From positions 1 to 28,131 of the forward strand of contig CAZAIS010000001.1 in the NCBI GenBank assembly GCA_964485255.1: a stretch of 28,131 bases of DNA, given 5' to 3'. Below the pieces are notes generated by a model, which saw only the letters and a program-made list of their open reading frames with translations, was not told the origin of the DNA and did no database searches. This document shows positions 22,857 to 26,474 of this stretch, piece after piece. The position numbers and the translations under genes were made by a program. This stretch comes from an uncultured Acidimicrobiales bacterium (GTDB taxonomy: Bacteria; Actinomycetota; Geothermincolia; Fen-727; Anoxymicrobiaceae). Within the stretch, counting starts at the first letter, position 1, and every line of letters starts with the position of its first letter.

Positions 22857-25208
22857 TTACATCTTCTTCAGGTCATCAATAATCTTCTTAACCGACCCCT
22901 TGTCCACCTCTTTTGACCTCCTGGCGCGGCCTTTCTTGTCTTTGGCGTCCTTCGCCCTGGTCGCCTCCCGGTCTTTCTCTGTTATATGCCGCCTTTTCTC
23001 CTTCACGCCTCCCGCGAGCTCCAGCAGTTCCTGCTCGAGCTCAAACGTCTCGAGGTCGACCAGGCTGGTCCCGGCGCCGCGCTTGCCGCGTACCTGCAAA
23101 CCGAAATCCTCTTCATCCTCGCTCGAGGCCTCGGCCCCGGTCTCGGACTCCTCCTCGGCGAGGACTGTTTCTTCTTCGACGCCGGGCCGGGAGGATATTG
23201 CGAAATCGTCCTCGAAGACCGGCTCCCGCCGGGGCGCGGCGGATTCCTCCGGCTCGCGCGGCTTTTCCTCCTTCGCGGTCTTGCCACCCGTAATCTCGCG
23301 AAGCGTATCCATCTCGTCGAAGTACGCGTCGGCGGCCTGCTTGCCGGCGGCCGGCGTCATCTCCGGATCCAGGAAGGCCGCGGCGGGCTTCTCCTGCCGC
23401 GCCGGAGCGTCCTCCAGAGCCACCTGCCCGGGCTCCTCCGAGACCGGTTCGGCTTCGAAGGTGACAGTCTCGGCCTCGTCCGGAGCCTCGACGGTGAAGG
23501 CGGCGGGCCCGTCATCCAGGACAACCGCCCCGGCGTCGGCGCCGATCGACTCCTCCTCCACCTGCGCTTCAGCGGTCTCGCCGAACACGACCTCTTCGCC
23601 TGCCTCTTCCTCCAGCTCGATCCCGGCAGTCAGCTCATCTTCCTCGACCCGCAACTCGGCCGGCTCCCGGGTCAGCTCCTCGATCGTGTCGATCTCTTCC
23701 ATTTCCTCGAACCGGGCAGGCTCTCCGGCTGACCGGGCAGCTTCCTCCTCGTCGGCATCCTCCGTTTCCCGAGCCGCCTCCACGGGCTCTTCGCCCTCGA
23801 AGGCGGCCGGCTGCCTGCGTTCGTCGATGGGGATTACCTCGGCCTCCTCGACGTCGGTTGCGGAAATCTCCAGTTCCTCCGATTCCTCTATCGCAAGCGG
23901 CGGGACGCCTTCATCCCTCGCGACGGCCGCATCCTCGAGCTGAAAGACCTCCGCCTGCTCTCCACCGAAGGCCGTCTCCCCCGCATCCCGGGAAGCCACG
24001 GGCTCGGGCTCAGCCGCCTGTTCGACGAGCTCGGGCTCCGCTCGAGCGGCCTCCGCGACAGGAGGCTCGGCCTCGATCTCGGACCCTGCATCAATCGCGA
24101 TATCCTCGGCGGTTACAACCTCCTCGGTCTCGCCGAGCTCGACAACGGGAGTCCCCTCTTCGAGGTCCACATCCTGGAGCGCGTCAGGTCCCGACTTGAA
24201 CTGGATGACACGGCCCGTGGAACCCTGAGCCCCGGCGGGCTCGTCCTCGACGTGCGCCTCTTGAGGCTCCACGATTGGATACGTCGGCTGATCGAAGGCG
24301 AGCAACTCCTCCCTGCTCAGATCGCGGGATTTAGGGGTGACCTGCAGGAGTTGCTCTATCTCTTCTTCCGTGGGTATGCGCCCCTGGTCCCCGGAATCGT
24401 CCAACAGGGGTATCTCCCCGGCGTCCGGCACCTGATCGAGCCCGGCTTCAGACCCCTGAGGCTCCATCTCCTCCAGGCCCGAGAGCGCGATCTCTCTGGG
24501 GCTTCCGGCATCCTCGTCGACAGCCGGTTCCCCGGCGTACGCCTGCGCTTCGACTTCCTGCTCCATCGTAACGTAGTTGGCGGCGGCCGGTGGAACATCG
24601 TCCAATCCCACCGTGGCCGCTTCCTCCGAAACGGAGGCCTCCGGGTCCCCCTCATAGCCGCCTTCAGCCTCGGCGGCCTCCGGCTCCAGATCCAACTGTA
24701 CACTCTCCGCCGTCGCTTCGTCCCTCGCGTCGGCTTCTTCCGCGACCATGGGGGAGAGTTCCTCCAGGATGAATGAATCCTCCGCCGCCACTTCCTCTTC
24801 TGTCCCCGGCTCCGCCTCGAGCCGGCCGGTTTCACTGGCGACCGCTTCGGCTGCGGCCGGTTCCTCCCCGGACTCTTGAATCTCCCGCTCGCCGGGCTCC
24901 GCCTCCTCCTCGTCCGGATGATCGGCAGCGCCCTTGTGTGACAGCCTCCTGCCGCCCCCGCGCAGTCTCGTCAGGTGGCCGGCCCACTCGAGAGGAATGT
25001 CATCGGGTTCCTCGTACCCGGCAGCCTCATCGAGCGTCTCTTCGGCCGCCTCGTCAGGCGACGCTTCGGATTCATGCTCTTGAACGAACTCGACCTTCTT
25101 TTTGTCCTCGGTCTCCTTGAAGGCCAGCAGGCGGTCGTTGTCGGACGCTTCCTTGAGCGCCAGGGACTTGTAATAGTCAACCAGGCTCTGTCCAGGCGCG
25201 GGTTCCTC
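22857..25208 (-). CDS. Acidic low-complexity region in frame with the upstream DUF4388 gene, probably its C-terminal part beyond an internal TAG
   Basis: No stop from 25208 to 22860 and same frame as 25209-26474. The first canonical start is only at 24791 with a poor RBS. E/A/D/P-rich, ending in an amphipathic helix ([12 protein letters not shown]). Confidence 0.7.
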   Translation of the reverse strand, partial: [783 protein letters not shown]

Positions 25209-26474
25209 CTACTTGGCCCGCACCTCCGGCTCGAGGTCCTGGTCATGAATAATGAGACTTTCCTCTTCCCTTACCTCCGGCTCCGGCTCGTCCGCCGGCT
25301 CGCGCTTCTCCTCCGCTTCGGTAGACGCCTCTTCATCCAGTCGCTCCTTCCGCGCGGCGGACGTGTGAATCGACTTCCTGGTCTTGCGCCTGGACTTCTT
25401 GCGCTTGCGGCCGCCGTCGTCGAGGTCAACCTCGTCGCCGGTGACCTCCTCCACCAATACCTCTTCATCCGCTTCGCCGAGGGTTATCTCTTCCACGGGC
25501 TTCTTCCTGCCGGCCGTGGACTTGCGCCTGGACTTCGGGGCCTTGGCCTCCTCCACCTCCGGTTCGGGAGCCGCGGCGGCGTCCCGCCCGACGGGAGCTT
25601 CCGCCCCCGCGGGCTCGGCCTCCGCGGGCTCCGCCACCGTGGCATCCACTGGCTCCAGGGGAGCTTCGCTCGCGCCCGGGGCGCCGGCGGGCTCCTCTTC
25701 CTCCATCTTCTCGATCTCTTCCTCCAGAACGCCGGGAACGGTGTCCGCGGCCCGGGCCTCCTCCTCGGTCAGGACCACGAGACCGGCGGTCACAAGCCCG
25801 TACAGCGCTTTGCATGTCACCAGCGCGCTCTGTCCGCTCTTCTCTATGATGTCGCGAACGCCGCTGCTTCCGTCCACGTGGTAGAGGACCAGCCATTCCT
25901 CGCTGGTAAGGTTGATGTCCGTGGCGTCCTTTCCGGGGATCTTTGTCATCTTGAAGACCGAGTCGAGCGACGGCACCTTCTTCTCGATCTGGTACCACTC
26001 GTCTAGCCTCCGGCTGCCTTCCATGATGAGGTCCTCGGTGGTCATCGAGAGGCCAATGTCCTCCTCGGGAAAGATCTGGTTGGGGTCGAAATCGAACTCC
26101 CCCTCGGTCCAGCGCAACAGGTGGAAGACGGCATCCCTTATCTGTTCCTCGACGAAGACCTCGAGTGATTCTCGGCTCAGGTAACCCATCTCGACGAGGA
26201 TGTTGCCGAGCCTCTGTCCTTTCCGGGTCGTCTTCTGCAGATCGAGCGCCTCGTCGATCTGCTCCTCTGAAACCATGCCTGATTCCGTGAGCCTGCGGCC
26301 GAGTGGAGGCCTCTTCCAGTTATGTGTCGCAAAGAAGACGTTGCCGTTTCTGAAGCAGACGTAGCCCTTCGCGTCTCCATTGGTGATGTTGAGAGTTCCG
26401 TTCTTCTTCCCGAAATGGATCAACTGAAACAAATCTGGAAGGCTGAAATCCCGGAGGCTTCCTTTAAGAGGCAT
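25209..26474 (-). CDS. DUF4388 (PATAN) domain protein with embedded MshEN-like motif and acidic tail
   Basis: [49 protein letters not shown] are typical of DUF4388. Ends at TAG 25211-25209. Confidence 0.85.

Follow-up and report, generated by a model that had tools for sequence, protein, structure and literature searches.

The stretch of DNA analyzed here (the window; 28,131 nucleotides) contains two reverse-strand ORFs that lie in the same reading frame: one of 421 aa with an ATG start (25209..26474) and one of 644 aa for which a GTG start was called (22857..24791). Conceptual translation of positions 22857-26474 on this strand gave 1205 codons plus a terminal TAA, with a single internal stop, a TAG at codon 422 (25211-25209; context GCC AAG TAG GAG GAA). 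A preliminary description of this DNA had placed the two ORFs in one frame with this TAG as the sole stop separating them, and both the ORF layout and the translation agreed with that account. The 139 codons that separate the TAG from the GTG included no ATG, GTG or TTG. These codons do contain conserved motifs (see below), in keeping with the earlier observation that they resemble protein while lacking a canonical start. The 783 codons 3′ of the TAG were fully open up to a conserved C terminus, and a search of them for a second lesion found none. This downstream frame was homologous along its whole length, up to the conserved C terminus, to the C-terminal two thirds of orthologs encoded by single genes and is not a chance ORF in GC-rich DNA.

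The predicted product of the interrupted gene (22857..26474, reverse strand, as defined by the translation and by homologs that are single proteins) is a PATAN/DUF4388-domain protein that combines a long, low-complexity acidic region, in which short conserved motifs occur, with a basic C-terminal tail. The PATAN domain (residues 4-160; 25995..26465, reverse strand) was detected with Pfam PF14332 (E=2e-37; 128.4 bits relative to a cut-off of 25), the match taking in profile positions 1-121/122 and scoring above the gathering score. Within this domain, residues 57-111 (26142..26306, reverse strand) matched NCBIfam NF053729, an MshEN-type cyclic-di-GMP-binding motif, at 57 bits (cut-off, 38), and PDB matches were obtained to MshE (5htl; E=1.2e-7) and PilF (6f8l). 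By its profile score this segment classes as an MshEN-type c-di-GMP receptor motif, for which binding is putative.

Synteny placed the gene in a conserved Roadblock-GTPase-type IV pilus cluster. The upstream neighbor encodes a Roadblock/LC7 protein (26490..26948, reverse strand; PF03259, 7e-18), and a second protein of this type is encoded at 27180-27611 (PF03259, 5.4e-14). The downstream neighbor (22297..22839, reverse strand) encodes a small Ras-like GTPase that is distantly MglA-like (Pfam ATP_bind_1, 1.1e-14; Ras, 1.3e-6); it scored below the NCBIfam small_GTP cut-off (37 versus 42.5), and its best solved relatives were MglA structures, although the match was weak (PDB 3t12; E=2e-4). The presence of a Ras-like GTPase gene beside Roadblock/LC7 and type IV pilus genes is reminiscent of the MglA/MglB polarity module of Myxococcus xanthus and Thermus thermophilus. 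The locus differs from that module, however, in the weak similarity to MglA, in the better score of the GTPase with ATP_bind_1, in the presence of two Roadblock paralogues and in the location of a PATAN protein between the Roadblock proteins and the GTPase.

An N-terminal PATAN domain and a genomic link to type IV pilus motor genes (PilB, PilT and PilC) are also features of the PatA-type regulators PixE, PixG and LsiR of Synechocystis. In that organism, the PATAN domain acts as the output domain and by itself binds PilB1 and PilC (bioRxiv 10.1101/2021.06.11.447907). Unlike these regulators, the protein described here has no receiver domain and instead carries ∼970 residues of disordered, acidic sequence in which short conserved motifs occur; its gene lies between two Roadblock/LC7 genes and a small GTPase gene, and its lineage is actinomycetotal ("Ca. 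Geothermincolia"). This conserved, uncharacterized PATAN protein, which combines an MshEN-like motif with a very long acidic tail, may deserve a study of its own, and the interest of such a gene, located between Roadblock/GTPase genes and pilus motor genes in "Ca. Geothermincolia," is independent of the TAG.

The state of codon 422 was examined in a homolog set of 33 database proteins and 14 species-representative genomes (Actinomycetota, "Ca. Geothermincolia"/Anoxymicrobiaceae). All of the complete homologs in this set were encoded by one uninterrupted gene of about 850 to 1480 codons. The database homologs were single proteins of 846 to 1259 aa bearing PF14332, and the loci of all 14 species-representative (GTDB) genomes were uninterrupted and read through a conserved motif at this site. 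In the aligned column of codon 422, the 29 full-length orthologs had Glu (n = 18), Asp (n = 4), Ala (n = 3), Lys (n = 3) or Arg (n = 1), and a stop was present in none. Contigs from all six of the other metagenomes containing this species (X2 to X7) had a C at plus-strand position 25211, where the window has an A, and so encode GAG (Glu) at this codon. The X6 contig, from the nearest strain, covered positions 25055-25301, and in these 247 bases the sole difference from the window was base 25211. An exact-match query for the 421-aa protein against public assemblies returned no record, and neither allele was matched when JGI metagenome contigs were scanned for the exact pattern with the variable base set to N. 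The sense codon in the orthologs and the GAG in six other metagenomes identify the stop as a derived GAG-to-TAG substitution (G>T; C>A on the plus strand) private to this contig. The preliminary description had raised a change from GAG, CAG or AAG and had suggested that the codon be checked in orthologs; the strains and orthologs now name GAG as the ancestral codon.

Conserved segments lie beyond the TAG. Outside the N-terminal domain, conservation peaks in a motif (residues 425-452; 25119..25202, reverse strand) that starts three codons past the TAG, so that a truncation would remove it. Of 33 fused homologs inspected, full or partial, 30 have this motif, and mean identity over residues 421-450 was 0.79 in the 29 orthologs. 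A conserved C-terminal block (22860..23093, reverse strand), with an identity of 0.57 to 0.80 in orthologs, was intact in the window. The conservation profile of the orthologs indicated clear purifying selection within the family on the region past the TAG. In a partial list of 40 differences 3′ of the TAG relative to strains of ∼96% identity, 24 were at third positions; in the same partial list, 21 were synonymous and 19 were nonsynonymous. These differences confirm that the downstream frame evolved as coding sequence, while being silent on its present state in this strain.

These data bear on whether the locus could consist of two separate genes, one for a 421-aa PATAN protein and the other for an acidic protein translated from the GTG at 24791 or by reinitiation at a Shine-Dalgarno-like AGGAGG overlying the TAG. 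The 644-aa ORF was indeed called with a GTG start, and a GGAGG string does overlap the stop. This architecture, however, was seen in no homolog, and independent starts were absent from the orthologs. The two motifs with the highest conservation beyond the N-terminal domain both lie between the TAG and the GTG and would go untranslated. The GTG (24789..24791, reverse strand) was a start in no ortholog, has conserved motifs upstream of it and is an internal Val codon called as a start by a mechanical ORF-calling artifact. Reinitiation at the GGAGG was rejected because this string has no start codon within reach and corresponds simply to Glu codons (GAG GAA) common to the orthologs. Apparent split or truncated forms elsewhere were also discounted: P0023, a protein of 671 aa without a PATAN domain, reflects a run of N inside the gene in contig L001, and L009 contains 4 N and a frame change. 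The suggestion of two genes was, therefore, abandoned as highly improbable.

A lone in-frame stop with an intact, conserved coding frame beyond it is also what programmed recoding of UAG would produce, either by regulated read-through or by insertion of pyrrolysine or another residue by a suppressor tRNA, with the 421-aa and 1205-aa proteins as isoforms. Such an arrangement is known for pyrrolysine in the methylamine methyltransferase genes of Methanosarcina, Desulfitobacterium and others, where an in-frame TAG is likewise followed by conserved coding sequence. In those systems, however, orthologs share the TAG and pylTSBCD is present in the genome, whereas in this case the TAG is confined to a single contig, the orthologs have Glu, TAG is a frequent stop and the family is unrelated and not among the gene classes known to use pyrrolysine. 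Stop codon usage in the window was TGA 11, TAG 9 (including the internal one) and TAA 2. Of the window's 21 other genes, 8 end in TAG, namely, those for the pilin, PilB and PilT, as had been noted before, and 5 more, and TAG also terminates this same gene in 6 related genomes; hence, it is neither reassigned nor avoided. Scans of the 28-kb window detected no tRNA and no Rfam family. The 135 nt past the stop had a predicted folding energy of −39.6 kcal/mol, compared to a mean of −39.6 kcal/mol for shuffled sequences (z = 0.01), and a literature search for Geothermincolia/Anoxymicrobium found nothing on pyrrolysine or type IV pili. As the stop is conserved in no ortholog and near-identical strains carry GAG, recoding was considered very unlikely, and even less weight was given to a variant in which the TAG is real and low-level UAG read-through or suppression would yield the PATAN/MshEN-only protein of 421 aa together with the full 1205-aa protein. 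The preliminary description had led with read-through or pyrrolysine isoforms and had retained a mutation or a sequence error as an explanation at least as likely; the sense codon in the orthologs and near-identical strains upholds the latter part and contradicts the former.

Read support for the TAG base was assessed with run X1, which was compared as contigs of an independent (Logan) assembly. These contigs were 100% identical to the window across positions 8214-28105, barring one SNP at 27706, with a word depth of about 5. The X1 assembly had only two gaps in these 19.9 kb, together amounting to 3.6% of the length, and one of these gaps (24969..25261) contained the TAG; no X1 contig covered this stretch, and the flanking contig had a word depth of 2.6. 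X1 was probed for 31 sampled words of this stretch, and none was present. The Logan pipeline discards words seen only once; hence, the TAG base would be supported by at most one read in X1. No X1 contig crosses the site, and a 61-nt query in which each 31-mer spanned the TAG was present in no indexed run. When the whole coverage gap was used as the query, all of the matching runs carried GAG. Base support for the TAG is, overall, weak.

Alongside the ancestral GAG, the private status of the TAG, the single-gene architecture and the coverage hole, which are observed, we infer a low-coverage base error at 25211 in preference to a real rare allele, with a probability of roughly 65%. A base-call or assembly error would have entered the consensus at a point where essentially one read spanned the contig; codon 422 of the organism would be GAG (Glu), one full-length PATAN-domain protein would be made, and nothing would be programmed at this site in what would be an ordinary single gene. 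G>T/C>A changes are the class of oxidative library artifacts, and the gene itself is a large target, having 169 GAG codons, with 3.9% of its possible single-base changes giving a stop. The case resembles low-coverage consensus errors or private nonsense variants that split genes in metagenome contigs in having a single-base difference from all relatives, an otherwise intact ORF and minimal read support, and assembly artifacts (the N runs in L001 and L009) also interrupt other public copies of this long low-complexity gene. It differs in that a substitution generates a stop rather than a scaffold gap or a homopolymer frameshift interrupting the frame.

The main competing explanation is a real and very recent G>T change in the strain or a subpopulation. 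The protein would be truncated after residue 421, retaining the PATAN/MshEN-like N-terminal domain and part of the linker but losing the downstream motifs and the C-terminal tail, and the 783 downstream codons would be untranslated, or translated at trace levels only, with decay yet to begin. Consistent with this are the presence of the base in an assembled contig, the derived state of the TAG relative to all relatives, the existence of such variants in natural populations and the intact downstream frame, which fits a very recent event; the difference between X1 and the window at 27706 also hints at strain polymorphism in the sample. The TAG was, however, found in no other run or assembly, the chance of a real allele falling in a coverage hole is only about 3.6%, and there is no second lesion past the TAG. 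Furthermore, the purifying selection on the region that would be lost means that a truncating allele should be rare. A genuine nonsense allele is thus possible but clearly the less probable origin of the stop.

With a base error as the preferred reading, codon 422 is very probably GAG in the organism, and the appropriate annotation for the locus is a single 1205-codon gene instead of two genes or a recoding candidate. The value of the analysis lies mainly in this correction, and comparing the codon with that of near-identical strains found in other metagenomes, combined with a check for a coverage hole, provides a quick triage for such stops. Some observations count against an error. The X1 gaps gave no separate indication of an elevated error rate, as the other gap (19434-19849) was clean, with 64 invariant PilB/PilT columns all free of private changes, although this test is an uninformative one. 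The SNP at 27706 indicates that the window was perhaps not assembled from X1 alone, and G:C>T:A changes are also common as natural mutations.

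The minus strand of positions 22857 to 26474 contains two ORFs in the same frame, a 421-codon ORF (25209..26474) with an ATG start and a 644-codon ORF (22857..24791) with a GTG start. Translation of the whole interval gave 1205 sense-or-stop codons plus a terminal TAA, with a single internal stop at codon 422, a TAG at 25211-25209 (GCC AAG TAG GAG GAA). No ATG, GTG or TTG was present among the 139 codons from the TAG to the GTG start. The ORF listing and translation agreed in all details with the preliminary description of these ORFs and of the TAG, and the stop codons of the window bore out its statement that TAG terminates the pilin, PilB and PilT genes. 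Of all gene-like ORFs in the window (n = 22), 11 end in TGA, 9 in TAG (including the internal one) and 2 in TAA.

The 783 codons located 3′ of the TAG were used as a query against the protein collection. Thirty-five proteins were detected, one being the window's own 644-aa ORF and 33 being fused single proteins of 846 to 1259 aa with PF14332. The sole unfused case, P0023 (671 aa), was ruled out as a natural split form by an N run inside the gene in the source scaffold (locus L001), which has a PATAN ORF directly upstream; the N run therefore accounts for deposition of this homolog as a separate protein. When one genome was scanned for each species, the gene was detected in 14 relatives, MAGs labelled Actinomycetota, Candidatus Geothermincolia or Candidatus Anoxymicrobiaceae. 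All 14 loci were uninterrupted from the initial MPLKG through a 14-residue motif, and most reached the conserved end of the protein. The one locus that seemed truncated, L009, had 4 N and a frame change. N runs in scaffolds break two public copies, at ∼2440-2540 in L001 and ∼3300-3460 in L009, and assembly artefacts readily arise in this long gene of low complexity.

The TAG sits three codons ahead of the most conserved block outside the N-terminal domain, with identity over residues 421 to 450 averaging 0.79 versus 0.2 to 0.35 in the flanking linker (29 full-length orthologs). The aligned column contained E (18), D (4), A (3), K (3) and R (1), and a stop in 0 of the 29 orthologs. Contigs from six other metagenomes (soil, landfill [twice], sludge, wastewater and biofilm) covered the site, and all had a C at plus-strand position 25211, giving GAG on the coding strand. 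Five of these contigs were from a strain ∼96% identical to the window, while the only difference between the window and the sixth (X6; 247 bases, 25055-25301) was base 25211. The TAG is therefore a derived state, a GAG>TAG substitution confined to the window's contig. The TAG allele was not found elsewhere, either by exact look-up of the 421-aa product or by a pattern scan of JGI contigs.

The preliminary description had offered UAG read-through or pyrrolysine incorporation as one alternative, a reading not supported by these data. The defining test of such sites is conservation of the in-frame stop among orthologs, whereas the TAG of the window is not conserved and the closest strains have GAG. 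TAG is, moreover, a common terminator in the window, and the same gene ends in TAG in six related genomes. Scans of the 28-kb contig detected no tRNA and no Rfam family, the 135 nt 3′ of the stop folded no better than shuffled sequence (z = 0.01), and a literature search produced no link of pyrrolysine to this lineage. The GGAGG overlapping the stop consists of Glu codons, is present in orthologs too and has no start codon at a usable distance 3′ of it.

Read support was assessed with X1, a metagenome run containing the same strain, which matched window positions 8214-28105 at 100% identity save one SNP (27706), with a word depth of ∼5. The independent X1 assembly had only two gaps in 19.9 kb, 19434-19849 and 24969-25261, amounting to 3.6% of the matched stretch. 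The TAG falls within the latter gap, whose left-flanking contig had a depth of 2.6. None of 31 words sampled from this gap was present in X1, and a 61-base query, each 31-mer of which spans the TAG, matched no run in the run index; pieces retained for other runs include records down to 31 bases. Words seen once are discarded by the Logan pipeline and, hence, each 31-mer of the TAG stretch was present at most once in X1. Were X1 the source, a single read would underlie the base at the TAG.

The fallback explanation of mutation or error was upheld and narrowed to a private GAG>TAG in a coverage hole. The site fits a well-known pattern, in which a private SNV or an error in the consensus breaks a gene on a metagenome contig of low coverage. 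We favor an error, with a probability of roughly 65%, because the TAG lies in one of the two coverage holes and because regions conserved within a family show strong depletion of real nonsense variants. The gene is an unusually large target, with 169 GAG codons and 3.9% of possible single-base changes yielding a stop. Oxidative artefacts of library preparation are typically of the G>T (C>A) class, which is also common among natural mutations. The frame 3′ of the TAG is fully intact and has evolved as coding sequence, with 24 of 40 differences from the 96% strains in a partial list falling at third codon positions. Such a frame implies either no event in the organism or a very recent one. A genuine recent nonsense allele is a less likely but plausible explanation, as X1 is unproven as the only assembly input.

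The second X1 gap (19434-19849) covers the end of PilB and the start of PilT, and neither gene is disrupted there; no private change was detected at 64 invariant PilB/PilT columns, which is uninformative at this error rate. The sole X1-window base difference, at 27706 in the ferredoxin gene (27635-27937, minus strand; A in the window, G in X1), hints at a minor strain polymorphism or at a window assembled not from X1 alone.

Residues 1 to 160 form a PATAN/DUF4388 domain (PF14332, E = 2e-37), and the protein belongs to this family by the Pfam criterion. Within this domain is a predicted MshEN-type cyclic-di-GMP-binding motif (26142-26306, minus strand, residues 57 to 111; NCBIfam NF053729, 57 bits versus a cut-off of 38), whose best solved relatives in the PDB are MshE (5htl, E = 1.2e-7) and the N-terminal domains of PilF and PilB. 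The match falls on the alpha-helical insert of the domain, an insertion that Makarova et al. (2006; cited in PMC12448109) described for PATAN. This PATAN protein, encoded beside pilus motor genes, may be a c-di-GMP receptor. Over the other ∼970 residues the protein is acidic and low in complexity, and neither Pfam nor NCBIfam gave a match. The acidic region (22857-25208, minus strand) is not variable throughout, as it contains islands conserved family-wide, the basic C-terminal tail among them; the islands look like short linear binding motifs of a putative disordered scaffold. PatA-type regulators of Synechocystis bind PilB1 and PilC through their PATAN domain, which suffices for output (bioRxiv 10.1101/2021.06.11.447907). 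The gene adjoins PilB, PilT and PilC and is flanked by Roadblock and GTPase genes, a context suggesting that the protein regulates, or acts as a scaffold for, placement of the pilus motor.

Transcription on the minus strand runs through ferredoxin, two Roadblock/LC7 genes, the PATAN gene, a small Ras-like GTPase (weakly MglA-like) and AroE, then PilB, PilT, PilC and pilin, then a glycosyltransferase, methyltransferase and radical-SAM block and, last, PilD and PilM. The order from ferredoxin to PilT was kept across relatives' loci. With PilC included (17167-27937) and the PATAN-acidic protein at ∼850 to 1480 aa, it was kept in 15 MAG loci of Ca. Geothermincolia/Anoxymicrobiaceae (L001 to L015). 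From its gene content, this conserved cluster of an actinomycetotal lineage is predicted to be an uncharacterised module that resembles MglA/MglB and is linked to type IV pili. Between pilin and PilD (2752-16552) are a GT2 gene, three SAM methyltransferases, a B12-binding radical-SAM enzyme, PMT_2 and TMEM260-like glycosyltransferases with TPR repeats, and two large ORFs lacking a Pfam match (6792-9029, 745 aa; 14231-16552, 773 aa). The block is a candidate island for the glycosylation or modification of pilin.
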